The notes beneath the pieces were generated by a model. It was not told the origin of the DNA. It did not search any database and was given only the letters and a program-made list of their open reading frames with translations. The position numbers and the translations under genes were made by a program. From the NCBI GenBank assembly GCA_964606385.1, contig CAZSFZ010000001.1:3519-67518 (forward strand): DNA of 64,000 bases, written 5' to 3'. Positions 16,339 through 54,291 of the stretch are shown here, piece after piece. Source of the stretch: an uncultured bacterium. GTDB taxonomy: Bacteria; Omnitrophota; Omnitrophia; Omnitrophales; Aquincolibacteriaceae. How positions within the stretch are numbered: the stretch's first letter is position 1; each line of letters opens with the position of its first letter.

Positions 16339-17103
16339 TTATTTCTGATCGGAATCCAGAAGTAAAAAATCGTTGCCGGGCGGCGGGGCACCGGATCCCG
16401 CGTCGATCTCCTGAGGCGGTCCCGGCGGGTATTCTTCATAAGCGCCTTCAGCTTCCGCTTCGAATTTCCCGTCGAGCGATTCTCCGCGCATCGCCCCTTC
16501 CAGATAGGCGGCCAGATCTTCGCGCCCCGTATCGCGTAATTTGGAAACCGTTTCAAGCGCCATCGGGGCTTTCCCCATCTGCACATAGGCCAGCCCCAGC
16601 CCATAATAGGCCTCGTCAAAATCCGGGAACGCCTCGATCGCCTTTTTAAAATGCTCGGCCGCCGTAACAGGGTCCTGTTTTTCGGTCAGCGTGAACCAAC
16701 CAAGACCGAAATAGGCTTTGGTGTAATGGGGGTCGGCCTCCAGCGTTTTTTTGAAATTATCCGCCGCCAGTTCGGGACGGTTCGCGGGTCCGGCATAGGT
16801 AGAAGCGAGATTGAAATAGGCTTCCGCGTAATTGGGATCGTTGCGGATCGCCTGTTCGAAAGACCCGATCGCGCTCTGAACGGATTCTCCCTGCCGAAGA
16901 TAGATCAGGCCGAGAAGATTATAGATCGGAGCCTGGTTCGGTTCCGTTTTGAGGATCCTTTTGAGCACTTCGATCGCCTCATCATAACGGTCTTCCTGAA
17001 AAAATTGGATGGCCTTCTGATAATCGTTCATTTCGCCTTCCGCCGAAGCCGAAGGCGCGCCGGCAAGGATCAGGAGCAGCAAAAAACCCGAGACGCACCT
17101 CAC
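16339..17103 (-). CDS. Secreted TPR-repeat protein (last gene of the large minus-strand array)
   Basis: GTG start at 17103 overlapping the upstream stop (GTGA). Signal peptide VRCVSGFLLLLILAGAPSASA. Four or more TPR units (AIEVLKRILKTEPNQAPIYNLLGLIYLRQG...). The ORF-track version (start 17625) is an out-of-context 5' extension through the upstream gene. Confidence 0.5.
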   Translation of the reverse strand: MRCVSGFLLLLILAGAPSASAEGEMNDYQKAIQFFQEDRYDEAIEVLKRILKTEPNQAPIYNLLGLIYLRQGESVQSAIGSFEQAIRNDPNYAEAYFNLASTYAGPANRPELAADNFKKTLEADPHYTKAYFGLGWFTLTEKQDPVTAAEHFKKAIEAFPDFDEAYYGLGLAYVQMGKAPMALETVSKLRDTGREDLAAYLEGAMRGESLDGKFEAEAEGAYEEYPPGPPQEIDAGSGAPPPGNDFLLLDSDQK

Positions 17104-17699
17104 GAGGCAATCTCCTTCGAACCCTGCAGGCCGGCCACATCTTCGGCCCCGATCAGGGTCCTGGAGATGTCGAGCGTGCACTTGATGATGTCGGAGCCCT
17201 TGGATTTGGGCCCCATTGAATAACGCTGGACCAGAAAAAGGTAATCGGATTGTTCCAGAAGATTGACGAACGAGAGCACATTCGTCAGCAATCCCTCGCA
17301 ATCGATGCTTGTCTTGTAGATCGAATAACTGGGTTTTTCTTCGACGTCTCCGGGGCGGACGCTCGTGATCGTCACATTCTGCTGTTTCGCCAGGGTCTCG
17401 ATCTTCTTGAGCAACGCGGCGATGATCGCTTCCTGGGTCATCTCCCCCGTGTCCAGATAGACGCTGTACTGGGCATACTCCTCCAGGATCCGGTCCCGGA
17501 AAGAAATGATCCGCTTGCTGCGTTTGATGTTCTCTTTCTGCGCCTTGCTTTCCGCTTTCATGTATTCGGTCTGGGACAGGAACGGTCCGAGCATCAGGCT
17601 GTCCATAAGCATCACGGCAACGCATACGACCGCTGCGATAAAAAGGGCCTTCCGTCCTCCCGTCAGACTGGCAAAAAATTCTTCGAGGTTTATTTTCAT
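17100..17699 (-). CDS. GspM/PilO-like inner-membrane assembly protein
   Basis: 199 aa. Short cytoplasmic N-terminus, one TM (ALFIAAVVCVAVMLM), then a periplasmic alpha/beta domain. Positioned directly after the PilM-PilN fusion. Confidence 0.5.
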   Translation of the reverse strand: MKINLEEFFASLTGGRKALFIAAVVCVAVMLMDSLMLGPFLSQTEYMKAESKAQKENIKRSKRIISFRDRILEEYAQYSVYLDTGEMTQEAIIAALLKKIETLAKQQNVTITSVRPGDVEEKPSYSIYKTSIDCEGLLTNVLSFVNLLEQSDYLFLVQRYSMGPKSKGSDIIKCTLDISRTLIGAEDVAGLQGSKEIAS

Positions 17700-17700
17700 A

Positions 17701-19224
17701 TCAGAATCCCTGCGCCAGCACGCATTCGATCACAAAATCCGCAACATCCTGCTTTCCCTCTTTGCGCGATTGTGTTTCTTTCGTCTCGACCGACCCGAAG
17801 CGGTTGGAATCCCTCAACTGGGTCACAAAGGCGAACACGCGCGACATGGAATTGGCGGTCCCCGTCAAGGTCACGCGGCCTTCACTATCATAATCGACCT
17901 GCGCGAAATAAACGTCATCCCCGACATAATCATTGACGATCTTGAGGACCTGGAGCTCTTTCCCGCGGCTTTCAATCAGCTTTTTGACAATCCGGTTCTT
18001 GGTGGAGATCGACTCCAGCTTTTTGGCGTCTTCATTATATTGGCGGCTCGCCGTCAGGAGCTTTTGATTGACCAGCTTTTTAAAATAAATATTGCTGCCC
18101 ATGATCAGCGTTGTCAGAAAAAAGATGGCCATGATGAGAATACCGAGGCTCATGATGTCCCGGCCGCCTTCCCGGACCTGCTTCTTGATCTTGACCTCGC
18201 GCAAGAGAAGATTGATCTTGGCCTGCGCTTCATAAGCCAGCACCGAAAAAAGCTCAAAAAAGGAAAGCTGGCTTTCCTGATTGACCGCGCGCGTCGCCGC
18301 TTCATTCGCGTGGAAAAAATCCCGGTAATCGAAGGTGACCACTTCGATCTCTTTCACATGCATGCTGCCCGAGCGCCTGAGATCGTCTTCAAGGGTCGGT
18401 AATCCTTCGAGGATCCCCGTCGCGGAGATCAATTGGATCGGTTTTCCGACCCCTTGGTCAGCATACGCCCCGATGGACTTCGTGAGCTCGCTGATAAAAT
18501 CCTCCTTCGCCTGCTTGGCATTGGCACGAAGTGCGTCGGCTCCCACCGGAATATTGCGGACAAAAAGGATCTGCTCGCCTTCGATCACGGTCAGCTCCGA
18601 GTACTCTTCGCTAACATGCAATCCTCCCAAAGCCCCCTGGAGCGTTACCCCCCTTAAGGAATTGACGTAAGTCTTTACCATGCATTCGGATGCAACGACC
18701 ACCTTATCGAGGCTCAGTCCGGCCTGCTCGAAAATGGCCGGAAAGCGTTCGCCGATCTTCCGGTTCACGATAAAAAGCAGGACGCTTGTGTAGTGCTGCG
18801 CCGGAGCTTCCAGACACGAGAAATCGATCACGATCTCGTCGCGCATGTAAGGCGTGAAGCGCCCGGCCTGAAGATCGATGATCTTCGCAATTTCCTCTTT
18901 TTCCGTGGAAGGGATATCGATATTCTTGAAAATGTATTGCTTGGGGGAAATAATGCAAAGGCCTTGAGAGGGAGAGATCTTCTGCTTCTGACAATAAGAG
19001 GCAAGCGCCTGCGCGATCTCGGCATCGCTTTTACTGTCGATCTTTTCGGCGATCACGTTCTCGATCGTGAATTTTCCCTGGCTCGTCCGCCCGCTTCCGA
19101 TCTTGAGATGCTCCGCGCCGAGCGACACCACAAGCGTCACCGGAACGGGCATGAACCTGTCGAGCGGGCTCCCGCCCTTCGCCTTAGCTCCCCCGCCCGA
19201 TTTTTTGGGATCTAGGAGGGACAT
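17701..19224 (-). CDS. GspL-like protein: PilM (actin-like ATPase fold) fused to PilN-like TM/periplasmic domain
   Basis: 507 aa. The N-terminal ~350 aa are PilM-like. Then TM SLGILIMAIFFLTTLIMGS. Then a PilN-like C-terminus. Confidence 0.6.
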   Translation of the reverse strand: MSLLDPKKSGGGAKAKGGSPLDRFMPVPVTLVVSLGAEHLKIGSGRTSQGKFTIENVIAEKIDSKSDAEIAQALASYCQKQKISPSQGLCIISPKQYIFKNIDIPSTEKEEIAKIIDLQAGRFTPYMRDEIVIDFSCLEAPAQHYTSVLLFIVNRKIGERFPAIFEQAGLSLDKVVVASECMVKTYVNSLRGVTLQGALGGLHVSEEYSELTVIEGEQILFVRNIPVGADALRANAKQAKEDFISELTKSIGAYADQGVGKPIQLISATGILEGLPTLEDDLRRSGSMHVKEIEVVTFDYRDFFHANEAATRAVNQESQLSFFELFSVLAYEAQAKINLLLREVKIKKQVREGGRDIMSLGILIMAIFFLTTLIMGSNIYFKKLVNQKLLTASRQYNEDAKKLESISTKNRIVKKLIESRGKELQVLKIVNDYVGDDVYFAQVDYDSEGRVTLTGTANSMSRVFAFVTQLRDSNRFGSVETKETQSRKEGKQDVADFVIECVLAQGF

Positions 19225-19787
19225 GCCACCCTCACCGGAAGATCGATCATACTCATCATTTTCTGGCCTTCGCCTCCCTCGAGCTCAATTGTAACCTTAA
19301 CTGTCTCCGGAAAACAATTTCTATTCCACGCGGGGAACCAACGGTACCCCTTCGCGGTCGTGTCGTACGCGTAATATTCCAGTCCGAAGGACCGGACCTT
19401 GTCCAGAGCGGCGCGAAAAAGCTTCCGGTCCGCTTTGGATGTAACGGCCTCTTTGAAACTTTTCTGCAAGGAGACGAGCGTTTTACTTTTGGGATCATAT
19501 TGATAGCCCACATAAACAAGGTCACGGCCCGACAGGGACGCGAAAGCAAGGCCGTCCTTCTTCCCCTGGAAACCCCACTGCGGGTCCATGAACGCGTTTC
19601 TCAATTCAGACGTGAATTTCTCCACAAAAAGGCGGGCTTTCCATTCTGACCTGTCCTTGGATCCCCGGCTCCAAAGGCGGGTTCCCTGGGCGAAGGTCGT
19701 ATAGACGGCCCCTGCGAGGACCGCGGTGATCGTCACGGCGACGATCACTTCGACCAAACTAAAGCCCTGTCGTCTTCCAGCTTGCAT
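19212..19787 (-). CDS. Minor pseudopilin (GspJ-like)
   Basis: Prepilin N-terminus ...RRQGFSLVEVIVAVTITAVLAGAV. About 190 aa. Confidence 0.5.
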   Translation of the reverse strand: MQAGRRQGFSLVEVIVAVTITAVLAGAVYTTFAQGTRLWSRGSKDRSEWKARLFVEKFTSELRNAFMDPQWGFQGKKDGLAFASLSGRDLVYVGYQYDPKSKTLVSLQKSFKEAVTSKADRKLFRAALDKVRSFGLEYYAYDTTAKGYRWFPAWNRNCFPETVKVTIELEGGEGQKMMSMIDLPVRVACPS

Positions 19788-20211
19788 ACGGCACCATAAG
19801 GTAAAAAACACGGCTGATCGAGCGGCGGATCCCCCGATTCTCCCAGGATATTTTCGCTTCCGCCTCCAGCAGATTGTTATCGGGACTGATCGAACGGATA
19901 TTCAGATCGTATTGGTAGGCCCGGTGTTTCCCGAGCAGCACCTCATAACGCGGCACGGACGGAAAACTTTTCGGCTTTTCCTGCAGGCGCCGCTCGGTCT
20001 CCCAGATCTTGTTCTGCAAAAGCCATTCCGCCTGGTCCCAATTCTCAATCACGCTCAGGGCCGACAGGGATCCGATGAAGACCTTCTGGACCGCGACAAT
20101 GCCGACCGCAAGGATCACCACACTTAGGAGCACCTCGATCAGCGTAAAGCCTTTTTTAAGGCGGACCGCCCCCCTCCCGCTCATCACGTCCTTCGAAAAA
20201 GTCTTCTTCAT
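19759..20211 (-). CDS. Minor pseudopilin (GspI/GspH-like)
   Basis: Prepilin N-terminus KKGFTLIEVLLSVVILAVGIVAV. 150 aa. Confidence 0.5.
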   Translation of the reverse strand: MKKTFSKDVMSGRGAVRLKKGFTLIEVLLSVVILAVGIVAVQKVFIGSLSALSVIENWDQAEWLLQNKIWETERRLQEKPKSFPSVPRYEVLLGKHRAYQYDLNIRSISPDNNLLEAEAKISWENRGIRRSISRVFYLMVPYASWKTTGL

Positions 20212-20664
20212 TTATTTGGAGGGTTCCACTCCCCAGTTCACGATATCATCTTTGGCGGATTCGGGCTTCGGATCCTTGCCCAGAGAAGAAAGATCGTAAT
20301 CGTGGGGACGGCGCACTCCCGGGGACTGATATTGATAGGGCCGTTTCCAGGGATCCAGCGGTTGCTTTTCCAGATAGGGACCGTTCCAGTTCTCGGGGAT
20401 CGGGGTCGTGGTCGGTTTTTGCAGGAGCGCATTGAGGCCCTGGGTCGTGGTCGGAAGAAAACCGTTATCCAGTTCATAAAGTTTGAGAGCGGTCGGGATA
20501 TTCACTTCAATATCCGCCTTGGCCGCCGCCTGGCGCGCCTGTTCGGAACGCCCGGTGAGCCGCGGCACGACCATCGCCGAAAGCGTCGCGATAATGATCA
20601 CGACGAGAATGATCTCCACAAGCGAAAAACCTTTTTGAGAACACGGGACCTTGTCTTTTTTCAT
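20212..20664 (-). CDS. gspG: Major pseudopilin GspG
   Basis: QKGFSLVEIILVVIIIATLSAMVVP prepilin N-terminus. GspG core ...LDPWKRPYQYQSPG...DYDLSSLGKD. Alternative upstream start at 20697. Confidence 0.8.
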   Translation of the reverse strand: MKKDKVPCSQKGFSLVEIILVVIIIATLSAMVVPRLTGRSEQARQAAAKADIEVNIPTALKLYELDNGFLPTTTQGLNALLQKPTTTPIPENWNGPYLEKQPLDPWKRPYQYQSPGVRRPHDYDLSSLGKDPKPESAKDDIVNWGVEPSK

Positions 20665-20671
20665 AGAACCC

Positions 20672-21874
20672 TCACTGGTTAAAAACGATCGCATCAATAC
20701 TGAAAACGGGGAGCAGGATCGCCATGGCGACCAGCCCCAGAAGTAATCCGACGGTCAGGAGCGTTATAGGCTCCACCAATTGCGTCATGACCCGCGTGGA
20801 TTCATCGACCCGCTGGTCATACCAATCGGCAATATCGCGGAACGCCTGTTCCAAATGCCCCGTCTCTTCCCCAATGAGCAGCAAATGGACCGCAAAAAGC
20901 TGGAATCTCCCCGAGCTTTTTAGCGCCCCGCTCAGGGCAGCGCCTTGCTCCACCCGGCGCATCGCGGTCGCAAGGTCCTCCCGCATCGCTTCGTTAGAAA
21001 CCACGGGGACGGCGATCTTGAGGGCCTTCAGGAGAGGGACTCCCCCCTTCAGAAGCATTTCCATGGAGCGGGCAAAAGCGGCGAATTGGGCCATGAAAAC
21101 CATCTTGCCGGCCAGCGGCAGCCCCATCCTCCAGCGGGCCCATCGCACTTTCTGGACGGGACCTTTCGAACGCTTATAGAAAATGATGCCCAGAACCCCC
21201 GCGGCAAGAAGCACGATCAAACCGTAGTGCTGGACCCCGTCGCTAACCAGGATCAAGCCCCGCGTGAGCAGCGGAAGGTCCTGTCCGAACTCTTCGAAGA
21301 GCTTGGAGAACTGTGGCACCACATATGCCAAGAGATAGGCCACGGCAAAAAGGCCCAGCACCGCGACCAGCGAAGGATAGATCAACGCGTTCCGAACTTT
21401 CTGGAGAACGGAAAAACGCCGCTCGTGACATTCCGCCAAACGCGCCAGGGCCTCGTCCAGATGTCCCGTGTTCTCGCCCAATTCGACCATGGCCACCGCA
21501 AAAACATCGAACACAGCAGGATGTTCGCCCAAAGCCGCCGCGAAGGGTTTCCCGTGCCGGACTTCTTCCTTGATCGTTTCGCAGATCGACTGGAGTTTCC
21601 GGTCCTCGGTCTGTTCGGCCGTCACGGTCAGGGCCGCCAGTAGCGGGATCCCGGAGCGGACCAATCGCCCGAGCTGCTGATAGAAAAGCGTCAGCGAACG
21701 GCCACGGACCCCGCCCCCAAAAGGTCCCATTCCCCTTACGCCTTCTTCACGGACCTGGACGGGAAGCAGGTTCATTTCATGGATCTTGTCGACCGCCGCC
21801 GCATGCGACTCGGCCGACAGGATCCCTTTGATGAGTTCCTTGCCTTTTTTGGCTTCGTACTTGAATTTTTTCAT
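20672..21874 (-). CDS. gspF: T2SS/T4P inner-membrane platform protein GspF/PilC
   Basis: 400 aa. Two GspF repeat domains and three TM segments. N-terminus FKYEAKKGKELIKG... Confidence 0.85.
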   Translation of the reverse strand: MKKFKYEAKKGKELIKGILSAESHAAAVDKIHEMNLLPVQVREEGVRGMGPFGGGVRGRSLTLFYQQLGRLVRSGIPLLAALTVTAEQTEDRKLQSICETIKEEVRHGKPFAAALGEHPAVFDVFAVAMVELGENTGHLDEALARLAECHERRFSVLQKVRNALIYPSLVAVLGLFAVAYLLAYVVPQFSKLFEEFGQDLPLLTRGLILVSDGVQHYGLIVLLAAGVLGIIFYKRSKGPVQKVRWARWRMGLPLAGKMVFMAQFAAFARSMEMLLKGGVPLLKALKIAVPVVSNEAMREDLATAMRRVEQGAALSGALKSSGRFQLFAVHLLLIGEETGHLEQAFRDIADWYDQRVDESTRVMTQLVEPITLLTVGLLLGLVAMAILLPVFSIDAIVFNQ

Positions 21875-21880
21875 CGGATC

Positions 21881-24226: not shown

Positions 24227-25683
24227 ATGCTGACACGGCTTTTCTTTTTAGGAGTTCTCCCGATCAGGTAGAAATCGCTGGCGGGAAGCTTGTCGAAAAC
24301 CCCGCTCACGATCGCCTCGCAATCATCAACCGCGTCCGAGACCGCCACGAATTCCCCTTTTCTTCCCGTGAACGCTTCGCCGACCGTGAACGGCTGGGTC
24401 ATGAAATTAAGGAGCTTCTCGGCGCGTCTGAAGTCGATCTGGTCCTCTTTCGGCAGCTCCTCCACGCCCACCACCTGGACGATGCGCTTCAAGGAATTGT
24501 GCTTCGCGAAAAGCGCGAGCATCTTCTGGCTCAGGTTATACGCCTTCTGTCCGACGATACGGGGGTCCAGGTTCGCGCAGCCGCTCTTGAGCGGGTCGAT
24601 CGCGGGATAAAAACCCTTCTGGGCGAGGTCGCGCGAAAGCGACAGGGCGCCGTCCAGACAGCTGAAGATCGCCACGACCGCGGGGTCGGTCATATCGTCG
24701 GAAGGCACGTAAACGGCCTGCAGGGAGGTGATCGAGCCGCGGCCGGGGATCGACCGGATCCTTTCCTGTACTGAATTAACCTCGGATTGGAGGGTCGGCT
24801 GATAGCCGGATTCCCCTGGGACGCGCCCGAGAAGCGCCGAGATCTCCTGACCTCCCTGAATAAAACGAAACACATTATCCATGAACAGGAGCACGTCCTT
24901 GTTCTGTTCGGCCATATCTTCCGCGAGCGTAATCCCGGTGTTCACGCACTCATAACGCGCGCCCGGCGGCTCATTCATCTGACCGAACACCAGCTTGACC
25001 TTCGGCAACAGGTTATTTTCTTTCAGTTCCGCGAAAAGGTCGTAACCTTCGCGGATGCGTTCCCCGATACCCGTAAAAATACAAACCCCACTGTGTTTCT
25101 TGACGATATTATTGATCAGTTCGAGGATAACGACGCTCTTGCCGCAGCCGGCACCACCCAGAATCCCCATTTTACTCCCCTTGCAAAGCGGGAAAAGCAG
25201 GTCGATGTACTTGATCCCGGTCTCAAGGAATTCGGGTTTGGCACCGAACTTGCTTTTCAGGTTGAATTGTTCCTCGCGGGGCGGCCGCCGGATGACCTTG
25301 AAATCCTTTCCCGTGAACGCCCCCAACTGATCGATCGGATCCCCGAACACATTGATGATCCTCCCGAAAAGCTCGTCCCCTGTGCGGATCGTGACCGGCT
25401 TCATGGTGTTGATCACCTTGGAATTAAGCTGAAGGTTCAGGGTCTCGGATAGAGAGATGCAGCGGACATCGTTCTTGCTTAAGTGCTCGGCGACTTCCAT
25501 CACGACCTTGCGTTTGTCGAACGTTTGTCCCACCAGCACGTCAAAAAGGGCCGGAAGATCGCTGATCTTGTCAAAGGTCACATCGACCACGGGACCGCGG
25601 ACACCGATGATCCTCCCTTGGACGTTCTTGGTGAACGCCGCTTCCATCGGGGTTTTTTCTGTGCTTTTTATTTCTTCATCCAT
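24223..25683 (-). CDS. atpD: F-type ATPase beta subunit
   Basis: GGAGCGKSVVILELINN...GIGERIREGYDLF, LLFMDNVFRFIQGGQEISALLGRVP, SITSLQAVYVPSDDMTDPA are collinear with F1-beta. Confidence 0.9.
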   Translation of the reverse strand: MDEEIKSTEKTPMEAAFTKNVQGRIIGVRGPVVDVTFDKISDLPALFDVLVGQTFDKRKVVMEVAEHLSKNDVRCISLSETLNLQLNSKVINTMKPVTIRTGDELFGRIINVFGDPIDQLGAFTGKDFKVIRRPPREEQFNLKSKFGAKPEFLETGIKYIDLLFPLCKGSKMGILGGAGCGKSVVILELINNIVKKHSGVCIFTGIGERIREGYDLFAELKENNLLPKVKLVFGQMNEPPGARYECVNTGITLAEDMAEQNKDVLLFMDNVFRFIQGGQEISALLGRVPGESGYQPTLQSEVNSVQERIRSIPGRGSITSLQAVYVPSDDMTDPAVVAIFSCLDGALSLSRDLAQKGFYPAIDPLKSGCANLDPRIVGQKAYNLSQKMLALFAKHNSLKRIVQVVGVEELPKEDQIDFRRAEKLLNFMTQPFTVGEAFTGRKGEFVAVSDAVDDCEAIVSGVFDKLPASDFYLIGRTPKKKSRVSI

Positions 25684-26585: not shown

Positions 26586-26597
26586 GCGCGACGGCCT

Positions 26598-27338: not shown

Positions 27339-27350
27339 AACGCTCCTTTT

Positions 27351-27581: not shown

Positions 27582-27597
27582 AGGACCTTTCCTTTTT

Positions 27598-27876: not shown

Positions 27877-27885
27877 GCGCGGCCG

Positions 27886-29388: not shown

Positions 29389-29396
29389 GCGTCGGA

Positions 29397-30797: not shown

Positions 30798-30861
30798 GGT
30801 AAAAACCTCTCTTTTTTTCTGTAATAACGGATCCCTAATTTCGTTCAGGATGGATCTTTAA

Positions 30862-51800: not shown

Positions 51801-52374
51801 CCGAGTCCGAAATGATGGCGCCCGCACGCTCGATCCAGCTGTTGATCAAATAAGCATTCGATTCAAAGCTCAGCTCGGAACGGACCGTGTATTCGCCGAC
51901 CAGAATGCTGAACGAGTCCGAAGTCGCGGAAATGATGCCGCTGTCCGAGGCCTGAAGCGTGTACAGCTCTCCGGCCTTGTCAATATTGAGCCCCTTCCCC
52001 GAAAAATCCGCGACGCCCGCCACCGCGTCCATCGAGACCGTTCCCCGCAGAGTGCCGCCGGTAGGATTATTAAGAATGGCGAGAGTGATCGTATCCGTCG
52101 CATCCGTCACCACATTGTTGTTAATATCGAGGATCTGAACGACGGGGGCCGGATCAAAGGTCTGACCTGCGGCCGTGGACTGGGGCTGGGTGGAAAAATA
52201 AAGTTTATAAGCCGTCGCGGCGGCACTGCCCTCCACCGAACTGGACCCGTCATAACTTCCGCCCGTGTAGATCGCGGCCTGGGCCGGGATGGAACCGAAC
52301 ACAAAAAAGAGAATGGAAAGCAAGGCGATCAGCCTGGAACCTCGGACCTTATTTAAAACAGAGGGGGCGTTCAT
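30862..52374 (-). CDS. Giant (7,170 aa) secreted repeat protein: signal peptide and Ig-like N-terminal region, about 500 tandem 13-residue GVNW repeats, helical C-terminal ~200 aa
   Basis: Single uninterrupted 21.5-kb ORF. ATG overlaps the upstream stop (ATGA). Signal peptide MNAPSVLNKVRGSRLIALLSILFFVFGSIPAQA. Repeat consensus [LM]S[KR][AT]GVNW[STLA][DG][LMI][NDG][VA], e.g. LSKAGVNWSDLNVMSRAGVNWLDMGVLSKAGVNWSGIDALSK. Confidence 0.85.
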   Translation of the reverse strand: MNAPSVLNKVRGSRLIALLSILFFVFGSIPAQAAIYTGGSYDGSSSVEGSAAATAYKLYFSTQPQSTAAGQTFDPAPVVQILDINNNVVTDATDTITLAILNNPTGGTLRGTVSMDAVAGVADFSGKGLNIDKAGELYTLQASDSGIISATSDSFSILVGEYTVRSELSFESNAYLINSWIERAGAIISDSGFSSGHISITVYDKNWDAVTAPGAATIKNNSVFRQSWTPPTNSDTYVADVTITYKGNDYSSRFAYNTAIQGGIAGAVSTLGSIDTKTTDIKAKTDLMNWDDIQAIKTAVGANSAETLYKRTGDILIAVAKANWDDLKIMSEARVNWNDLAEMSSKGMNWEDVRTLTRAGIRWSEIMQFSTSNINFQDLAQLTTSGVNWSDIGRLAKAGINWEDIGALSAVGVNWSDLSKLSKANVNWSGIEALSVGGVNWSGIQALSASGVNWLDVGKMAGIGINWTDLQVMAQAGVNWADIQRMSRAGANWDDFAKMTGAKVNWSETINWDNLAALTKANVNWTDMRVMSTANVNWDGLNALSVSGVNWTDFGVLSKAGVNWSDFGVLSKAGVNWSDLDLLSAAGVNWSGMQALAASQVNWTDLNVLSKAGVNWEDLNVLSRTGVNWSDLNALSRAGVNWSGMDALSKAGVNWTDLNVLSRAGVNWTDLQVISRMGVNWTGIDALSKAGVNWTGIDVMSKAGVNWNGMDVLSKAGVNWIDLNVLSKAGINWSDLQNLSVTGINWADLNVMSRAGMNWLDIGALSKAGVNWSGVDVISRAGVNWTDLQVLSRANVNWSDINALSQAGVNWTGIDVMSRAGVNWLDMGVLSKTGVNWNGMQALAAAGVNWVDFGLLSKTGLNWQDLNVLSRTGVNWSGIQALSAAGVNWLDIGALSKAGMNWSGLDALSKAGVNWTDLNVFSRAGINWSGVDALSKSGVNWSDLNVLSRIGINWSGMDALSRAGINWTDMGVLSNQGVNWTGIDVLSKAGVNWTDLNVFSKAGVNWTGIQAFSTAGVNWLDMEVLSKQGVNWSGMNALSRAGVNWTDINVLSKAGVNWSGIEALSRSGVNWSGIQALSRAGVNWIGIDVLSRAGVNWSGVQALSAAGVNWTDINVLSKAGVNWVGIDALSKSEVNWADLNVLSKAGINWTGINALSRGGVNWAGIQALAVAGVNWSGIDAMSKAGVNWTDVGALSKAGVNWSGVDALSEAGVNWTDLNVMSKAGVNWTGINVLSRAGVNWLDVGMLSAAGVNWADLNVMSKAGVNWSVMGTMSKAGINWTDFNVLSKAGVNWSDLNVLSRANLNWTDLQVMSKAGVNWSGIDALSRGGVNWTDLNVLSKAGVNWLDVGAMSKAGVNWTDLNVLSKTGVNWTDLQTMSRAGVNWLDMGALSKAGVNWSGIDVLSKAGVNWEDLNVLSRTGVNWTDLQVITKTGINWSDIGVLSKAGMNWTGIDALSRSGVNWSGMQALAAAGVNWSGMDALSRSGVNWSDLNVLSKAGVNWQDLNALSTAAVNWSDLNVLTRAGLNWTDLNVMLKTGINWLDMGVLSKAGVNWSGIDILSKSGVNWADLNVLSKTGVNWTDLQAMSRAGVNWTGMDVLFKAGVNWTDLNVLTRAGINWSDMNVMTKAGVNWLDMGALSAAGVNWTGIDALSRGGVNWTDFNVLSKAGVNWSGMDVLSKAGVNWTDLNVLTRTGVNWTDLNVMSRTGVNWADLNVLSKTGVNWTGIDALSKAGVNWLDMGALSKAGVNWSDLDVLSKTGVNWTDLNVMTRAGVNWLDMGAMSKAGVNWSDMNVLSRTGVNWSGMDALSKAGVNWLDMGVLSKAGVNWSGIDVLSKAGVNWADLNVMSKAGVNWIDIGTLSKAGLNWADMNVMSRAGVNWADMNALSRAGLNWSGLNVMSRAGINWGGIQALAAAGVNWSDLDVLSKTGVNWADLNAMSRAGVNWLDLEVFSKAAINWSDMNVLTRAGVNWSDLNVMSKAGVNWLDMGTLSKAGVNWSGIDVLSKTGVNWTDLNVMSKAGVNWADMGVLSKAGVNWSDMNVLTRTGVNWTDLQVMSRAGVNWTGLDALSRSGVNWADLDVLSKAGVNWADLNALSRAGVNWSDLSVFSKAGLNWSGIDVFSKAGVNWTDLNVMSRAGVNWSGIDVLSKAGVNWSDMNVLSRTGINWSDLNVMSKAGVNWLDMGVLSKAGVNWSGVDALSRSGVNWADLNVMSKAGVNWTGIDALSRSGVNWADLNVLSRTGVNWADLNVMSRAGVNWADMDVLSKAGVNWSGIDVLSKAGVNWTDLNVMSKAGVNWADMGVLSKAGVNWSGMDALSRSGVNWADMNVMSKAGVNWSGIDVLSRSGVNWTDLNVLSRTGVNWSDLNVMSKAGVNWLDMGVLSKAGVNWSGIDVLSKAGVNWADMNVLSKAGVNWSGIDVLSKAGVNWSDLNVLSRTGVNWADLQAMSRAGVNWSDLDVFSKAGVNWSGIQALSVGGVNWSDLNVMSKAGVNWSDLNVLSKTGVNWSDMNVLTRTGVNWADLNVMTRAGVNWSDMGVMSKAGVNWSDMNVLTRTGVNWTDLNVMSLAGVNWTGIDVLSKAGVNWTDMNVLTRTGVNWADMNVMSKAGVNWSDMGVLSKAGVNWSGIDVLSKAGVNWSDLNIMSKAGVNWLDMGAMSKAGVNWSDMNVLTRAGVNWTDLNVMSRAGVNWSDMNVLSRMGVNWNGLDVLSKAGVNWSDMNVMSRAGVNWSGIDVLSKAGINWTDMNVLTRTGVNWADMNVMSKAGVNWSDMGTLSKAGVNWDGIQALSVGGVNWSDLNVMSKAGTNWLDLGAMSKAGVNWSDLNVLSRTGVNWSGLNALSTAGVNWLDMGVLSKAGVNWSGIDVLSKAGINWSDFNVMSRAGVNWADLNVLSKTGVNWADMNALTLAGVNWSDLNVMTRAGVNWADMNVLSKAGVNWSGIDALSRSGVNWADMNVLSRTGVNWSGIDVLSKAGVNWADMNVLSRTGVNWADMNVMSKAGVNWLDLGALSKAGVNWSGIDVLSKAGVNWTDLNVMSKAGVNWADMGVMSKAGVNWSDLNVLSRTGVNWSDFNVMSRAGVNWLDMGVLSKAGVNWNGIQALSLGGVNWSGIDALSRAGVNWLDMGVMSKAGVNWSDLDVLSRTGVNWSDFNVMSRAGVNWADMGTLSKAGVNWSGIDVLSKSGVNWADFNVMSKAGVNWNGLQALSVGGVNWAGIDVMSKAGINWSDMNVMSRAGVNWSDFNVLSKAGVNWSDMNVLTRAGVNWSDLNVMSKAGVNWSDMGVLSKAGVNWSGIDALSKGGVNWSDLNVMSRAGVNWADMSAMSQAAVNWSDFNALTRAGVNWSDMNVMSRAGVNWLDMGVLSKAGVNWSGIDALSKGGVNWADLNIMSKAGVNWLDMGAMSKAGVNWSDLNVLTRTGVNWADLNVMSRAGVNWLDMGVLSKAGVNWSGIDALSKGGVNWADLNIMSKAGVNWSGLQALSVGGVNWSGIDVLSKAGVNWTDLNVMSKAGVNWADMGVMSKAGVNWSDLNVLSRTGVNWSDFNVMSRAGVNWLDMGVLSKAGVNWNGIQALSLGGVNWSGIDALSRAGVNWLDMGVMSKAGVNWSDLDVLSRTGVNWSDFNVMSRAGVNWADMGTLSKAGVNWSGIDVLSKAGVNWADLNVMSKAGVNWADMGVLSKAGVNWSGMDVLSKAGVNWTDMNVLTRAGVNWADMGVLSRAAVNWEDWNALSRTGINWSDLNVMSRAGVNWLDMGVLSKAGVNWSGMDVLSKAGVNWMDMNVMSRAGVNWSDMGVLSKAGVNWSGIDALSKGGVNWSDMNVMSRAGVNWLDMSAMSKAAVNWSDLNVLSRTGVNWSDLNVMSRAGVNWLDMGTMSKAGVNWADFDVLSKAGVNWSGLNVMSRAGVNWDGIQALSVGGVNWSGIDALSRASVNWSDLDVMSKAGVNWSDMNVMSRAGVNWSDLNVLSRTGVNWSDFNVMSRAGVNWLDMGVLSKAGVNWAGIDVLSKAGVNWADLNVFSRAGVNWADMGVMSKAGVNWSDMNILTRTGVNWSDMNVMTRAGVNWLDMGVLSKAGVNWSGIDALSKGGVNWSDLNIMSKAGINWLDMSVLTSASVNWADLNVLSRTGVNWSDFNVMSRAGVNWLDMGVLSKAGVNWSGIDALSRGGVNWSGIDALSKAGVNWLDMGTMSRAGVNWAGIDALSRGGVNWADLNVMSKAGVNWSDMNVLTRAGINWSDLDVLSKTGVNWSDFNVMSRAGVNWLDMGVLSKAGVNWSGIDALSRGQVNWSGMNALSRAGVNWNGIQALSVGGVNWSDLDVLSKAGVNWSDLNVMSKAGVNWLDMGTMSKAGVNWADFDVLSKAGVNWSGMNALSRAGVNWSDMNVMSRAGVNWSDLDVLSKTGVNWSDFNVMSRAGVNWLDMGVLSKAGVNWSGIDALSKGGVNWSDLNALSKAGVNWLDMGVMSRAAVNWTDWNVLTRAGVNWSDLNKMTRAGVNWLDMGVLSQAGVNWSGIDALSRGGVNWLDMGVLSKAGVNWNGIQALSVGGVNWSDLNVLSKTGVNWTDLNVMTKAGVNWLDMGALSKAGVNWSGIDALSKGGVNWLDMQVLSRAGVNWSGVQALSVGGVNWSDLNVMSKAGVNWLDMGEMSKAGVNWSGMSVLSQSDVNWSGLQALSSGGVNWLDIGIMSKAGVNWSGIDALSRGGVNWLDVGTLSKAGVNWSNLDVMSKAGVNWSDMNVLTRAGVNWSDLNTMTKAGVNWLDMGVLSKAGVNWSGIDALSRGGVNWTDLNVMSRAGVNWLDMEAFSKAGVNWNGIQALSVGGVNWSDLNVMSKTGVNWLDMSVMSKAGVNWSGIDALSRGGVNWLDLNVMSKAGVNWLDMGTMSKAGVNWSGIDALSRGGVNWEGMQALSLGGVNWLDMGVMSKAGVNWSGIQALSAGGVNWSGIQALSLGGVNWLDIGEMSKAGVNWSGLDVISRTNINWSDLNVLTRAGVNWMDLSALTRANVNWSGLDVISRTNINWSDLNVMTRAGVNWLDMGTMSKAGVNWSGIDALSRGGVNWEGMQALSRGGVNWLDMGVMSKAGVNWSGLDVISRTNINWSDLNVMTRAGVNWLDMGAMSKANVNWSGLDVISRTNINWSDLNVMSRAGVNWLDIGAFSKAGVNWNGMQALSESGVNWTDLNVMSRVGMNWSGIQALSRGGVNWDDLNVMSRAGVNWLDMGALSKAGVNWSGIQALSRGGVNWDDLNVMSKAGVNWLDMGALSKAGVNWNGMQALSRGGVNWDDLNVMSRAGVNWQDMGVFSKAGVNWAALNELTRANINWADLNVMTTGVNWLDLGVMSKAGVNWNGIQALSRGGVNWDDLNTMSKAGVNWLDMGTLSKAGVNWNGIQALSRGGVNWDDLNVMSRAGVNWLDMGTLSKAGVNWNGIQALSIGGVNWSDLNVMSQAGVNWLDLRAMTIANVNWAALNELTRTNVNWSDLNVMTSGVNWLAMGLLTQSGVNWTDINVMSRAGVNWEDFTALSTSNVNWEGFNVMSRAGVNWSGIQALSVGGVNWMDLDVMSRAGVNWLDMGALSKAGVNWSGIQTLSAGGVNWDDLNVMSRAGVNWLDMGALSKAGVNWNGIQALSVGGVNWTDLNVMSRAGVNWLDMGIMSKTGVNWSGIDALSRSGVNWSGIDVMSRAGVNWLDMGALSKAGINWSGIDVLSRTSVNWLDLGEMSKAGVNWLSMGALSIAGINWSDLNVMSRVGMNWLDMGALTKAGVNWLDMGALSKAGVNWAEFNRMAAANVNWSDFSTMTREGINWGSIGSLSKAGVNWEEFNRMSAAGVNWDNLGSMTQAGVNWLDMGALTKAGVNWAGLDAISRTSVNWDDMRAMTRAGVNWLSIGTLSTAGVNWAEFNRMSAAGLNWDDFGVMTRAGVNWLDMGSLSKSGVNWGGMDALSRAGVNWLDMGALTQAGVNWAGLNAISRTSINWNDLNVMTRAGVNWTNMGDMTTAGVNWIALNNIIGSDVNWSGLNAITRAGINWIDFGTMTRAGVNWDGLETISKTNVNWNDLNVMTRAGVNWLDIGALTDAGINWSGINTISRTGINWNDLRVMTRSGINWVDMGALTAAGVNWEGFNAISRTNINWDDLHVMTRAGVNWLDMGALSKAGVNWAEFNRMAQANVNWSDFGVMTRAGVNWFNIEALSKAGVNWAEFDRMAKANVNWNDMGVMSRAGVNWLDMRALTTAGVNWSEFNRMAAANINWSDFGVMTRAGVNWLNIEALSKAGVNWAEFDRMSSARINWEDMGRMSRSGVNWNNIDALSRAGVNWAEFDRMAKAQVNWNDIGVMSRGGVNWSGIDALSRAGVNWLDMGVLSRTGVNWTGFDVLSKAGVNWADLRVITREGINWSDFQVMTRAGINWADMGRFTAAGVNWSGIDALSRSGVNWSNLRELSTARVNWTDLQAMTSARVNWNEFNRMSDSRVNWADLGFMTRAGVNWSNLDLLARANVNWAGMNEITKARVNWVDFAKMASSNISWTNLATMSQAAINWSGINMITQAGVDWDNLANMSSAGVNWSGINVLSRAGVDWNGIRSLSVAGVNWSDFSVMSKVNVNWQDMQLMSAAGVNWLGINAMSRGQVNWAGMKTISESDVNWADLGVFSKAGVNWLDMGVMSRVGVNWADMRVISRTGVNWADFGVMTKAGTNWFDMSTLSKAGVNWTGIRALSVGGVNWADLNTMTRAGVNWLDMGALSKAGVNWAGLDALSRSRINWTGIRELSMGGVNWQDIGRLSTAGVNWQDVEVLTKTGVNWSDLNSLTQARVNWLDLGALSKAGVNWTDINVLSRTGVNWGDFNALSRAGINWNDLRALSRTGINWTEMDVLSKAGVNWEGLTALSLAGVNWQALQDLSAKGVNWNSIAAMSDANVNWSNLTVMTTAGVNWSDIRTLSVTGIDWNDLKTMTDAGVNWNGIRALSEGGVNWDEIAVLSEAGVNWDDISRLSVAGINWTDMNALTEAGINWEDLSVMTGGVSWQGLATQTKAGINWQGIADLSTGDVNWSGMKAISNKEQTIADIDSSTYTIMNTVKELDEVIGKRNGQPTITDRMAEFESLLEQVQQATSAISKESSDAGKKTEELVNRLVTLANDQAKALGFVGDEIKKVMKGGESNLNLMQGKLEEVKAYILAVKEATDASAREKLGQQAEEPKAIVKSWLEFGGEK
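31345..51510 (-). repeat. About 20-kb array of degenerate 39-nt tandem repeats (encoding the 13-aa GVNW unit), with a 117-nt (3x13 aa) super-period in places
   Basis: The plus strand shows ccagttcac (reverse complement GTGAACTGG = VNW) recurring every 39 nt from ~31.35 kb to ~51.5 kb. The units are diverged at the nucleotide level. Confidence 0.85.
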
Positions 52375-54014
52375 GACGCGGTCCTCGCAAGCCGGCCGCC
52401 ATAATCCTTGACCCGGGTGGCATCCGTCGTTCCGGCCTTATAGCGGTTGGACATTTCCATGTACGCCGTGGCCGTTTCGGACCAGCCCCCGCCCCGAAGC
52501 CCCGAACCGCCGGCACCGGTCACGCCGCGAGCCGTGCTGGTCGCATCCAACCCCGGCCAGTCAAGGTTCGTGGCATTTCCTTCATAAGAACTTGTGGCCG
52601 TCAAAACACCATCGCCATGCGTGCCGCTAAAACCCCGTCCCGCCGCATTGCCGAGCGTGACCGCGCGTTCCCACACATTGCCGGACAATTCCATATTTCC
52701 GTAATAACCCGCCGCGGAGCCGGCGCGCGTCGTGGTGGAAGCCGCCGCGAAGATCCCCGCGCGAAGCGGCCCGCGATTCGGCCCGTCGCCTCCGGTCATG
52801 TTGGTATTACTGAAATTCACCGTCGCATTGGAGGTGCTGCAGGTTTCCGTTCCGTCTTCCGCGCCACCGCTGACTACAGCACAGACCGTTGCGGAGGTCC
52901 CGCCCCAGGCATAAGCCGAAGTCGTCGGATAATCGGATCCCCGGGCCATTTTTTCGTATTCAAGTTCCGAAAACGGCCTCAAGGCCGCCCAGTCCGCGTA
53001 AGCGGCAACATCCATCCAGGAAAGATAGCCGCAAGCACGGTCGGACCGGTCCGTTGTGGCATCGCCGCTTGTCCAGGCGATCGTATTGCGATCCACCACG
53101 GAGTCGCTGTTTTTCCCCGAAGCCGCAGTGATGTCGCGCGTTGCTTTTTGCGCCGCCGTAAGCGTGTTGAAAAAAGCGATCCACTGCCCTTCGGTGATCT
53201 CATATTTCATGGCATAGAAAGCCGCGTAGCCTTTCGGGAACGCCGCGCTCACCTCAAAAGAGGCGCCGCTCGAGGCGTCATTCGCACCGCTGTCCGTGTT
53301 GTAATACCACTGGGAAGCTCCGGTCCCGAAGGAAAGCCCCGCTTCGCTGTTGATCGCGCCCGGCAAACTTGTCGCACTTCCCCCGAATTCCATTTCGCCG
53401 TTCGTCCCGCTGTTCCCGTCCCCCGCGTAGAAACCTCCTTGCGGGATATAGACCATTTCGACCGCGAAAACCCGGATGAGTGTGTTCGCGCCGCTCGCGT
53501 TCGCATCACTGACGCCATCCTGACCGTAGTCCCAGAGAAGCTGAATGCTGGTCGTGGACAAGGACCCGCTTCCCTGCGCGGAACGCTGGATGAAGCATCC
53601 TTTTTTGTCAGCCGGAACGAGAATGTCAATCGCTGTCCCGGAGCCGCGCGAAAAACCCGTAGGATTCAGCCCGGCTGTTTTAAGTGTGGCATGGTTCCAG
53701 GTGGATCCGGAATCCGTGGAGTATTTGACGAAGAGCCAGGCCGCGTCATAATTCGCGGCATCCCGCCAGGAATTATCCCAAGAGATATTGTATTGGACTT
53801 TGATCGTGTTCGCCGTGGAATCCTGCTCGACAAGTGAAGCGCTGGAAACGGCAAGATTATTCGCGAATGAAGAAATCGGAAAGGAGAGGAAGAAGAGGAA
53901 GACGCCCTGAGCAAGCTTCCATCCGATTTTCCTGTCTAACTCCTTGTAGCAAAAGCGACTACAAGCACCTAAATGCCGTAAAAAGGTTTTGAGCATAAAC
54001 TCCACTTGTCTCAA
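52371..54014 (-). CDS. FGE-sulfatase (SUMF1/GldJ/GldK-type) domain protein with ~200-aa N-terminal extension and signal/anchor
   Basis: C-terminal domain motifs YAMKYEITEGQW, ELEYEKMARGSDYP, GNVWERAV, LRGGGWSE match the FGE fold. Hydrophobic N-terminal segment LAQGVFLFFLSFPISSFA. Its stop overlaps the giant-gene start. Confidence 0.7.
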   Translation of the reverse strand: MRQVEFMLKTFLRHLGACSRFCYKELDRKIGWKLAQGVFLFFLSFPISSFANNLAVSSASLVEQDSTANTIKVQYNISWDNSWRDAANYDAAWLFVKYSTDSGSTWNHATLKTAGLNPTGFSRGSGTAIDILVPADKKGCFIQRSAQGSGSLSTTSIQLLWDYGQDGVSDANASGANTLIRVFAVEMVYIPQGGFYAGDGNSGTNGEMEFGGSATSLPGAINSEAGLSFGTGASQWYYNTDSGANDASSGASFEVSAAFPKGYAAFYAMKYEITEGQWIAFFNTLTAAQKATRDITAASGKNSDSVVDRNTIAWTSGDATTDRSDRACGYLSWMDVAAYADWAALRPFSELEYEKMARGSDYPTTSAYAWGGTSATVCAVVSGGAEDGTETCSTSNATVNFSNTNMTGGDGPNRGPLRAGIFAAASTTTRAGSAAGYYGNMELSGNVWERAVTLGNAAGRGFSGTHGDGVLTATSSYEGNATNLDWPGLDATSTARGVTGAGGSGLRGGGWSETATAYMEMSNRYKAGTTDATRVKDYGGRLARTAS

Positions 54015-54291
54015 TGTTGCGCATCATGGGCGACTAATGCGTTACTGCTAATTCTTCGATGCGTGACTGAGTTTTTAACTTAACCTCAACTGGCTCACTA
54101 GGTTACATAATAATTATAGCATGAATTTTGCATAGGTATAGGGGAAATGGACATATTTCTTCTATAAAGGTAAGGGGGAAAAACGAGCCTTTTACGATGA
54201 ATGAAACTTTTCGAATTCAGTGAAAAAGCGAGGAAGTTTTAAATTAAACGCGGAATTTCACTTTATTTGCAAGTCAAATGAAATGAATGAC
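54015..54291 (-). promoter_or_regulatory. AT-rich intergenic region: candidate promoter/leader for the FGE-giant-ATPase-T2SS array
   Basis: A 277-nt drop in GC between the TPR gene stop (54292) and the FGE start (54014). This is the only sizeable non-coding gap on the minus strand between 58.5 kb and 16.3 kb. Confidence 0.3.

Follow-up and report, generated by a model that had tools for sequence, protein, structure and literature searches.

Non-respiratory, 'symbiotic' F-type ATPase gene clusters occur beside type IVa pilus (T4aP) clusters in every class of the Omnitrophota (Seymour et al., 2023; PMC10066038). In that article, the pairing of ATPase and T4aP is recorded for 56 of 111 Velamenicoccia species and lies within 10 kb in 57 of 66 contigs, the alpha subunit falls outside the respiratory clade and together with Mycoplasma type 2/3 ATPases, the pili are called with TXSScan, and an analogy with the gliding of Mycoplasma mobile is proposed. 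Giant genes have also been reported beside genes resembling those of type II secretion systems (T2SS) and type IV pili (T4P) in Omnitrophota (West-Roberts et al., 2023, preprint; complete-genome preprint, 2026). Here we describe a locus in which a giant repeat protein, an F-type ATPase and a T2SS/pilus-like assembly system are encoded together in a 64,000-nucleotide stretch of contig CAZSFZ010000001.1 (assembly GCA_964606385.1). This whole stretch is called the window.

The locus is a member of the class described by Seymour et al.: the genome belongs to the Omnitrophota, the stop codon of the beta subunit gene overlaps the start codon of the GspE gene, and the two genes were adjacent in seven of seven related contigs. 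An earlier annotation made from the letters of the window alone (the sequence-only reading) had mentioned that giant genes and T2SS-like genes are co-localized in Omnitrophota, which the work of West-Roberts et al. (2023) bears out. It had also taken the embedded F-type ATPase to be unreported, and in this it was mistaken, as the pairing of ATPase and pilus genes had been published (Seymour et al., 2023; PMC10066038). The genes form a tightly packed, strongly conserved, co-directional Omnitrophota locus. The window carries one instance of the Omnitrophota symbiotic F-type ATPase/type IV-filament locus, with a larger anatomy than had been described, and we consider it slightly more probable than not that it works as an export machine for the giant protein with an F-type complex that hydrolyzes ATP.

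Gene order and conservation of the locus

Gene families were assigned with Pfam and NCBIfam profiles, and features of the window between 8,452 and 63,997 lie on the minus strand unless stated otherwise. The open reading frame list and a junction script gave 18 consecutive genes from 54,014 to 16,339, all on the minus strand and separated by spacers of -53 to +64 nt, in agreement with the sequence-only reading, which had placed every gene from about 54.0 to 16.3 kb on that strand. Three of the start/stop overlaps that it had named were present, namely ATGA at 52371-52374 (FGE-like and giant protein genes), ATGA at 24223-24226 (beta and GspE) and GTGA at 17100-17103 (PilO-like and TPR); the junction at 25683, between gamma and beta, is a 1-nt TAATG overlap and not ATGA. 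In the order of transcription, the genes encode an ExeA-like AAA ATPase, a weakly GspC-like protein, a secretin and a TPR protein, then, after a 277-nt gap, an FGE-fold protein, the giant protein, a membrane protein of 466 residues (cc466), the F-type subunits alpha, epsilon, c, b/delta, gamma and beta, and finally GspE, GspF, GspG, GspI-like and GspJ-like proteins, a PilM-PilN fusion, a PilO/GspM-like protein and a further TPR protein. The secretin block, whose genes overlap, lies just upstream on the same strand, as had been claimed, and the co-directional run reaches upstream to at least 63,997. Below 16,339, a convergent GT2-DUF2304 pair is followed, as far as 8,452, by same-strand genes whose products are an STT3-like protein, a small exported protein, a GT2 glycosyltransferase, GspK, an S41 protease and a second small exported protein.

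Context look-ups and tblastn detected an identical order in seven of seven independent contigs: giant gene, cc466, alpha-(epsilon)-c-b/delta-gamma-beta, GspE-F-G, pseudopilins, PilMN, PilO, TPR and the convergent DUF2304/GT2 genes. The giant gene was usually cut by the contig end in these contigs, in which the identity of gamma was 43-86% and that of cc466 was 36-71%. The upstream part of the order was followed by anchoring on the FGE-fold protein in GTDB species genomes, which gave 80 loci, 48 of them with the locus context. Where enough flanking sequence was available, the giant gene followed the FGE-like gene in 34 of 37 loci, and a secretin or TPR gene preceded it in 41 of 43. The remaining 32 of the 80 loci were paralogs without the locus context, some in the same metagenome-assembled genome (MAG) and the most distant in Bacteroidota. 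Paralogs of this kind within one MAG include those of loci L014, L027 and L054, and full-length relatives with 34-40% identity were seen in Lewinella, Saprospiraceae and Chitinophagia (L065-L084). Loci of the L064 type, with FGE paralogs beside fn3/FG-GAP proteins, have a different context and were not counted as the same system.

The linkage of giant gene, F-type ATPase and gsp genes that had been proposed from the window is, on this evidence, conserved across distantly related Omnitrophota. Every junction was conserved in independent assemblies, and chance and a contig mis-join are therefore ruled out. Both a mis-join and a lack of this linkage in relatives had been named beforehand as possible refutations. 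Gamma had 98 homologs with 27-100% identity, and all named ones were from Omnitrophota; the named ones among the 93 homologs of cc466 were also from Omnitrophota, except for one MAG labelled Geobacteraceae. The context-bearing FGE-like loci were likewise from Omnitrophota. These homologs assign the source organism to the Omnitrophota.

In canonical clusters, the gsp genes run in the order C-D-E-F-G-I-J-L-M. Judged by family assignments, a cassette of TPR, FGE-fold, giant, cc466 and ATPase genes is inserted between gspD and gspE of an otherwise canonical order. That the gsp order remains canonical around the cassette argues for functional integration.

The gene packing makes a single transcription unit plausible. 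The intergenic gap at 54015-54291 is a candidate promoter or leader of the array; its AT-richness, noted earlier, was confirmed (277 nt with 36% GC vs. 55% for the window), and it is the largest spacer in the whole co-directional run. Within it is a perfect TATAAT whose -35 element is poor, and a consensus promoter scan made no call there. Promoter-like and terminator-like matches within the array were no commoner than in shuffled sequence and therefore neither back nor refute one transcript, which leaves this part of the sequence-only reading where it stood. Between the giant gene and cc466, a candidate terminator was rejected as a weak hairpin (z = -1.4) with no U-tract. A riboswitch or other RNA was also rejected, as the Rfam scan gave no match in the 277-nt leader or elsewhere in the window.

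The F-type ATPase cluster

The alpha and beta gene products resembled canonical F1 subunits. Alpha (27886-29388; 500 aa) scored 509.4 bits with NCBIfam atpA (cutoff 484.45) and 233.7 bits with Pfam ATP-synt_ab, and its best Protein Data Bank (PDB) match was canonical F1 alpha at 450 bits. The alignment began at canonical residue ~23-34: the protein starts at the beta-barrel and the N-terminal tail, which is the delta-binding element, is absent. Beta (24223-25683; 486 aa) scored 508.3 bits with NCBIfam atpD (cutoff 462.85) and 226.5 bits with ATP-synt_ab; its best PDB match was canonical F1 beta at 438 bits, and the beta subunit of the Mycoplasma G1-ATPase scored 325 bits. Catalytic motifs were kept in five loci, including the Walker A motif GGAGCGKS and GIGERIRE (GER..E) in beta and the Walker A motif GDKMTGKT and arginine finger SVSRVG in alpha.

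The remaining subunits were smaller or more divergent. Epsilon (27598-27876; 92 aa) consists of the N-terminal beta-sandwich only (Pfam ATP-synt_DE_N, 41.8 bits), and its gene was missing between alpha and c in two lineages (L004, 4208-5924; L123, 3846-5579); it is therefore dispensable for this ATPase. The c subunit (27351-27581; 76 aa; Pfam ATP-synt_C, 33.8 bits) has an RNP loop and a helix-2 carboxylate (the Glu of FAEA) that align with D61 of E. coli and E65 of I. tartaricus and were kept in all loci. It was the best conserved small subunit, with 66-92% identity across loci in which gamma was 43-86% identical. A single b/delta fusion stator (26598-27338; 246 aa), with an N-terminal transmembrane (TM) helix, matched Pfam ATP-synt_B (29.3 bits) and just the C-terminal part of OSCP (31.3 bits); its top NCBIfam match, over the full length and far under the cutoff, was the N-ATPase-type b subunit (TIGR03321, 49 bits). 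Gamma (25683-26585; 300 aa) scored 62.3 bits with Pfam ATP-synt and 37.9 bits with the NCBIfam gamma model (cutoff 194). Thus the gene set has the catalytic alpha3-beta3 motifs and the gamma/epsilon/c rotor of a canonical F1Fo enzyme, with gamma and c very divergent, and a single b/delta fusion in place of separate b and delta subunits with the alpha tail. Gamma, b/delta and c were all far under their family cutoffs. The low count for gamma in the 2026 preprint, where strict thresholds gave F-type alpha and beta in 125 of 176 genomes and gamma in 30 of 176, is consistent with the divergent gamma seen here.

An a subunit was not detected. The spacers in alpha-epsilon-c-b/delta-gamma-beta were 16 nt or less, with no room for further genes; no open reading frame of the window matched the a subunit family (PF00119, ATP-synt_A), and a six-frame scan of the window gave no a-type SLRLxGN-like motif. 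None was called in L001-L004, L123 and L124, nor in ~120 flanking loci, which were scanned with the window proteins only. One genome in the KO table of Seymour et al. (PMC10066038) has K02111 and K02112 and lacks K02108, as a single anecdotal case.

These features bear on whether the cluster encodes a conventional ion-translocating ATPase or ATP synthase, with its a subunit encoded elsewhere and its genes placed in the operon for co-regulation alone. Such an enzyme might build an ion gradient for Sec export and envelope assembly of the giant protein in a fermentative cell that lacks a respiratory chain. Scores above the atpA and atpD cutoffs for alpha and beta, their matches of 438-450 bits to canonical F1 in the PDB, a strongly conserved ion-binding carboxylate and RNP loop in c, and the lack of complete respiratory chains in Omnitrophota (2026 preprint) would all suit such a pump. 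Yet the window and the syntenic loci and flanks examined hold no a subunit, alpha lacks the delta-binding tail, the other subunits score far below their families, and the site between gspD and gspE has been kept through deep divergence. V/A-type ATPase subunits, detected in 70-99% of the rest of the class Gorgyraeia, could do the same job in most of the class (2026 preprint), and alpha was put outside the respiratory clade by Seymour et al. (2023; PMC10066038). We consider the conventional pump unlikely.

Exported proteins, assembly genes and the glycosylation neighborhood

The giant gene product (30862-52374; 7,170 aa) has a Sec-type signal peptide, an N-terminal region of ~330 aa, ~511 tandem 13-residue repeats and a helical C-terminal domain of ~160 aa. 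The repeats follow the consensus G-V-N-W-s-D-l-n-v-L-S-k-A, in which N and W never vary; the 511 NW dipeptides are spaced by exactly 13 residues in 499 of 510 cases, and N-W-S/T occurs in 52% of the repeats. The protein contains no Cys. The GVNW repeat and the C-terminal domain were also present in the giants upstream of the ATPase in L001-L004 (E=1e-19 for the C-terminal domains of the window and L004). Searches with this domain gave 7 and 20 matches, all short C-terminal fragments, and neither the N-terminal ~330 nor the C-terminal ~160 residues had a Pfam or PDB match. An AlphaFold2 model of 26 repeats, for which 18 in-register segments of the protein itself served as a pseudo-alignment, gave one short helix per repeat with a pLDDT of 31 and was rejected as unusable.

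The repeats scored 86 bits with Pfam PF25533 (Lysostaphin_N; window 43000-44559), above the cutoff of 60. That domain likewise consists of 13-residue units in tandem, with an 'SKA.V.N' stretch; the shared periodicity probably accounts for the match, which was not taken as homology. The repeats have diverged in their DNA, and the open reading frame is therefore credible. The only exact repeat of at least 50 bp in the 21.5-kb gene is one ~503-bp duplication with copies 1,404 bp apart (~41456 and ~42860); the copy number of one 1,404-bp unit (36 repeats) is uncertain, and this unit could be mis-assembled.

The product of the next gene, cc466 (29397-30797; 466 aa), is a conserved type-I (bitopic) membrane protein. 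It has a signal peptide, then a unit of one beta-sandwich and one three-helix bundle in two copies, and, after a C-terminal TM helix, a short cytoplasmic tail that is basic and Pro-rich. This architecture comes from an AlphaFold2 model with a pLDDT of 82.6; no family match and no specific structural relative were found. In one lineage, cc466 is fused to a GGDEF domain. This variant locus (L052, 11617-21512) has the FGE-fold gene, then a 1,950-aa SBBP beta-propeller protein in place of the GVNW giant, then the cc466::GGDEF fusion, then only epsilon and c, with alpha, b/delta, gamma and beta missing, and then GspE. Sharing of the giant's C-terminal domain with this non-repeat cargo is not claimed (E=7 vs. 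the window and E=0.004 vs. L004). The GGDEF fusion suggests that cc466 signals across the inner membrane and, together with the PilZ domain on GspE, points to control by c-di-GMP.

The Sec signal peptide and the absence of a recognizable outer-membrane or cell-wall anchor in the giant protein would also suit a scaffold ('coat') in the periplasm or envelope, held in place by cc466 and remodelled by the ATPase and T2SS-like proteins, instead of a surface fiber. The cc466 model, in which two beta-sandwich/helical-bundle modules are predicted to lie in the periplasm, is in keeping with a scaffold, whereas a secretin and accessory proteins are conserved immediately upstream and ~511 repeats, if extended, would reach far beyond periplasmic dimensions. 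Such a scaffold is in our view very unlikely.

The FGE-fold gene product (52371-54014) is an exported protein of 547 aa from a TTG start, or 541 aa from an in-frame ATG at 53996. It scored 34 bits with Pfam FGE-sulfatase and 21-22 bits over 56 residues with FGE in the PDB. Its cysteines are at positions 12, 16, 134, 322, 372 and 386 only, with none after the RGGGW motif and none in ...LRGGGWSETATAYMEMSNRY..., and the catalytic cysteine pair of FGE presumably lies after the RGG motif. The FGE substrate motif [CS]x[PA]xR was not found in the giant protein, which is also free of Cys. The label 'FGE-like' in the sequence-only reading thus overstates the enzymology: by its sequence, the protein is probably non-catalytic and most likely a structural or binding module. 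A GldJ/GldK-type role was considered and rejected, as there was no NCBIfam match whatsoever.

Four genes precede the gap. The ExeA/GspA-like AAA ATPase (57606-58541; 311 aa; Pfam AAA_22, 76.7 bits) had the XrtA/PEP-CTERM-associated ATPase as its top NCBIfam match (169.9 bits, under the cutoff), and its gene was kept upstream of the secretin in many FGE-anchored loci. The weakly GspC-like protein (56953-57630; 225 aa; NCBIfam GspC_delta, 20.5 bits vs. a cutoff of 150) had no Pfam match and has one hydrophobic TM segment at residues 72-90; its position between the ExeA-like gene and the secretin was kept in related loci. The secretin (55200-56996; 598 aa) is of the GspD/PilQ family (Pfam Secretin, 157.9 bits; Secretin_N, 70.5 bits) and scored 222.8 bits as PilQ and 206.7 bits as GspD in NCBIfam, both under cutoffs. 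The exported TPR protein (54292-55203; 303 aa; Pfam TPR families) has an N-terminal hydrophobic segment, and the position of its gene between the secretin and FGE-like genes was conserved. Farther upstream on the same strand, at 58615-63997, are genes for a GH77 4-alpha-glucanotransferase, a 180-aa protein without assignment, two TPM-domain proteins, LemA and a two-partner-secretion transporter of the ShlB/FhaC type, the last of which continues to the edge of the window.

The genes after the ATPase encode an assembly machine. The GspE/PilB-family ATPase (21881-24226; 781 aa) carries an MshEN domain at its N-terminus and a PilZ domain at its C-terminus (Pfam T2SSE, 432.6 bits; MshEN, 62.1 bits); it scored 583.8 bits as GspE and 553.8 bits as PilB, both under cutoffs, with a weak PilT signal (194 vs. 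a cutoff of 319). The PilZ motifs RKYQR and NISAGG were intact and Pfam PilZ was called in orthologs; the strict MshEN c-di-GMP motif was not matched. Next come the GspF/PilC platform protein (20672-21874; 400 aa; Pfam T2SSF, 192.7 bits; NCBIfam GspF, 328.1 vs. a cutoff of 424) and the major pseudopilin GspG (20212-20697; 161 aa), which passed the equivalog model TIGR01710 (141.1 bits; cutoff 88.85) and has the prepilin motif KGFSLVE. Two minor pseudopilins with N_methyl motifs follow, one GspI-like (19759-20211; 150 aa; NCBIfam GspI, 38.8 vs. a cutoff of 44.35; prepilin motif KGFTLIE) and one GspJ-like (19212-19811; 199 aa; T2SSJ, 21.5 bits), the latter with a weak NCBIfam GspJ match that scored below the Verru_Chthon cassette C model. 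A PilM-PilN fusion (17701-19224; 507 aa; Pfam PilM_2, 35.9 bits; PilN, 41.5 bits; NCBIfam pilM, 59.6 bits) is the architectural equivalent of GspL. The PilO/GspM-like bitopic protein (17100-17699; 199 aa) has one TM segment, weak PilO (16.6 bits) and GspM (22.9 bits) matches and a conserved position. The exported TPR protein that closes the array (16339-17103; 254 aa; Pfam TPR families) starts at GTG 17103, which gives it a signal peptide and the GTGA overlap with the preceding gene. GspK (10078-11301; Pfam T2SSK_1st, 78.8 bits; NCBIfam GspK, 111.9 vs. a cutoff of 130) is encoded farther downstream. E, F, I and K scored best as Gsp proteins, PilQ edged GspD for the secretin, all of these were under cutoffs, and the GspM and GspC matches were weak (20-23 bits). 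Neither a GspO prepilin peptidase nor GspH was found in the window; the peptidase may be encoded elsewhere in the genome.

These scores leave room for an ordinary retractile or adhesive T4aP, beside which the giant protein would be an independent adhesin, secreted or anchored in another way, which would share the operon only as one of several attachment factors expressed on host contact. Such clusters are classed as T4aP with TXSScan by Seymour et al. (2023; PMC10066038), and the PilM, PilN and PilO-type domains, the slightly higher PilQ score of the secretin and the nearly equal GspE and PilB scores agree with a pilus. By contrast, the major subunit passes the GspG cutoff, the minor ones are GspI-, GspJ- and GspK-like, and neither a PilT/PilU retraction ATPase nor a PilA-type pilin was found in the window. 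In all loci examined, the gsp order enclosed the cargo cassette, and a Sec signal peptide is the only export feature of the giant protein, in which no autotransporter, type I secretion or sortase feature was detected. We regard an independent T4aP and adhesin as quite unlikely.

Glycosylation genes adjoin the array. The convergent GT2 glycosyltransferase and DUF2304 membrane protein pair (15003-16335, plus strand; Pfam) was at the same position in L001-L004 and in the STT3-anchored loci, and it was co-directional upstream of the secretin block in many other genomes. The STT3-like GT-C glycosyltransferase (12606-15161; 851 aa; Pfam STT3, 58.4 bits; STT3-PglB_core, 22.6 bits) has the STT3 membrane domain and an acidic motif, LLEADPY, that was largely conserved among homologs. 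It has WWPPGYF in place of WWDYG, and WW[PS]PG[YH]F was present in nearly all of ~29 aligned homologs; the classical sequon may therefore go unrecognized by this family. No sequon was found in GspG, both minor pseudopilins, cc466 or the terminal TPR protein.

Metagenome contigs anchored on the STT3-like gene (L086-L122) showed it adjoining T2SS-like genes in 12 of the 13 loci that had 4 kb or more of sequence on each side. There are two arrangements: in one it is co-directional after the convergent GT2-DUF2304 pair, and in the other it converges on the TPR end of the operon and has the S41 protease upstream. That the linkage is kept across the rearrangement argues for a functional link. The same-strand continuation in the window (8452-12535) encodes a 116-aa exported protein, a GT2 (Glycos_transf_2), GspK, an S41 C-terminal processing protease (8966-10108; Peptidase_S41, 173.5 bits, plus PDZ) and a 159-aa exported protein, in an order conserved in L086-L095 and L101. 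The S41 protease with PDZ was kept beside the STT3-like gene and GspK in both arrangements (L086-L121), and the conserved C-terminus of the giant protein (...IVKSWLEFGGEK) is a possible substrate for it. An S41-GT2-DUF2304-GT2 group was also observed, co-directional and upstream of the ExeA/secretin block, in L015, L017, L023-L025, L028, L030 and L032-L050; the equivalent genes are at the other end of the locus in the window, and the glycosyltransferase association is thus kept through rearrangement. At 1798-8370 is a further glycosylation-type group of a GT2, a PMT-like GT-C and two multi-TM proteins (585 and 475 aa) without a family match; the 475-aa protein and the GT2 recurred downstream of the locus in L086, L087, L090, L093 and L101.

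Proposed function and comparison with known systems

From these gene contents we infer a mechanism for the locus as an export machine. The block would be co-transcribed from the AT-rich gap at 54.0-54.3 kb. Sec would carry the giant protein across the inner membrane, and the T2SS-like pseudopilus machine would pass it via the secretin to the cell surface, a step that the PilZ domain of GspE could set under c-di-GMP control. Through its C-terminal domain, the giant protein may stay tethered to, or be sensed by, cc466. The F-type complex is predicted to hydrolyze ATP and not to synthesize it, in a non-chemiosmotic role, because the catalytic residues are intact, a c-ring and b/delta stator are present and the locus shows no proton channel. 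Its mechanical or rotary work would drive the envelope machine, by which the cells would attach to hosts or move on them. The STT3-like and GT2 products encoded nearby would probably glycosylate exported components, and glycosylation of the fiber by them is put forward only as a hypothesis.

Several points weigh against this proposal. The a subunit could be encoded elsewhere in the genome, as the negatives cover the window and the loci, and the strongly conserved carboxylate of c is expected of an ion-translocating ring and favors a conventional pump. We infer export of the giant protein through the secretin from gene position alone, and a folded repeat rod hundreds of nanometers long is atypical as a T2SS substrate; AlphaFold2 gave no usable fold for the repeats. 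Several T2SS components are under curated cutoffs, and the promoter and terminator scans were uninformative. The STT3-like protein lacks the Asp of WWDxG and only 52% of the repeats have S/T at +2, so classical N-glycosylation of the repeats is doubtful. Seymour et al. (2023; PMC10066038) class the system as T4aP.

A more specific and improbable version of the export-machine proposal is that the a-less F1-c-ring ATPase is an ATP-driven rotary or mechanical motor in an envelope-spanning machine of a kind not characterized before, physically coupled to the T2SS-like platform via cc466 or platform proteins. Under c-di-GMP control, with the C-terminal domain specifying cargo, such a motor might extrude, tension or reel a glycosylated repeat fiber hundreds of nanometers long, with which ultrasmall Omnitrophota would attach to host cells or move on them. 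If true, this would give the F-type rotary motor a third use, beside ATP synthesis/ion pumping and the gliding of mycoplasmas. Should the a subunit simply be encoded at another site of the genome, the system would amount to an ion pump under shared regulation and be far less remarkable. The Omnitrophota are uncultured, abundant nanobacteria that are presumed to live on other cells, and the locus is among their most conserved candidate systems for host interaction. The membership of the giant protein and cc466, the placement of the cassette within the T2SS order and a c-ring without an a subunit in the locus sharpen an observation that was published but mechanistically blank. They raise the questions of what a c-ring does without a proton channel, whether an F-type motor is coupled to secretion or fiber handling, and whether the fiber is modified by an STT3-like enzyme that has lost the canonical WWD.

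Gliding in Mycoplasma mobile resembles the proposed system in that an F1-derived ATPase is diverted from ATP synthesis and very large surface proteins act on host surfaces. The mycoplasma models scored below both their cutoffs and the canonical scores (MMOB1660, 390.9 vs. a cutoff of 600; MMOB1670, 410.1 vs. 850; MSC_0619, 274.3 vs. 520; MSC_0618, 369.1 vs. 570). Mycoplasmas are monoderm and, to our knowledge, their clusters have no c, no b/delta and no secretin or T2SS. The flagellar/type III secretion (T3SS) export ATPase complex FliI-FliH-FliJ has F1 alpha/beta-, b/delta- and gamma-like parts, and so is likewise an ATPase related to F1 that is attached to a protein-export machine, with a stator resembling b/delta and a stalk resembling gamma. 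FliI/SctN models gave ~180-200 bits; the window differs in having separate alpha and beta, a true gamma and epsilon, and c, and its machine is T2SS-like and not T3SS. N-ATPases (atpDCQRBEFAG) are also a second, divergent F-type operon in which b carries a delta-like function, but alpha (478 vs. 750), beta (453 vs. 752) and b (49 vs. 225) were all under the N-ATPase cutoffs, the gene order is different, and AtpQ/AtpR and a are lacking in the window.

Canonical T2SS clusters may have an adjacent substrate gene, as in the Klebsiella pul cluster. The locus has the same C-D-...-E-F-G-I-J-(K)-L-M order and a Sec-exported candidate substrate in the cluster. It differs in that GspH and GspO were not found in the window, PilM-PilN stands for GspL, GspK lies in the glycosylation group, GspE carries PilZ, the candidate has 7,170 residues and an F-type ATPase is embedded. 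The giants of West-Roberts et al. (2023) and the 2026 preprint are multi-enzyme 'Archaeovorins' or dockerin-type proteins preceded by a system of more than 10 subunits that includes rcpC and a rotamase, whereas the giant in the window is made of pure 13-residue repeats with gsp genes on both sides; ATP synthase has no occurrence in the text of West-Roberts et al.

The closest described system is that of Seymour et al. (2023; PMC10066038), from the same phylum and with a non-respiratory F-type ATPase directly beside GspE/PilB-F-G-PilMNO genes. Their alpha was placed with Mycoplasma type 2/3 ATPases; here, in a comparison of scores, the HMM and PDB matches were highest against canonical F1 (AtpA 509 vs. 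MMOB1660 391 and MSC_0619 274 bits). As far as the available portion of their article goes, giant open reading frames are treated separately, and the GVNW giant, cc466, the FGE-fold protein, the gspD-gspE position, the missing a subunit and the STT3-like linkage do not appear. We found no report of the GVNW giant and cc466 as fixed members, the gspD-gspE insertion, an a-less complex that keeps the c-ring, the non-catalytic FGE fold, the GGDEF variant or the STT3-like linkage; literature searches gave nothing for Omnitrophota with oligosaccharyltransferase and nothing beyond Seymour et al. for F1-like ATPase with pili. The core of ATPase and pilus genes is already known, and the giant protein, its membrane partner and the STT3-like gene are the newly defined parts of the locus.

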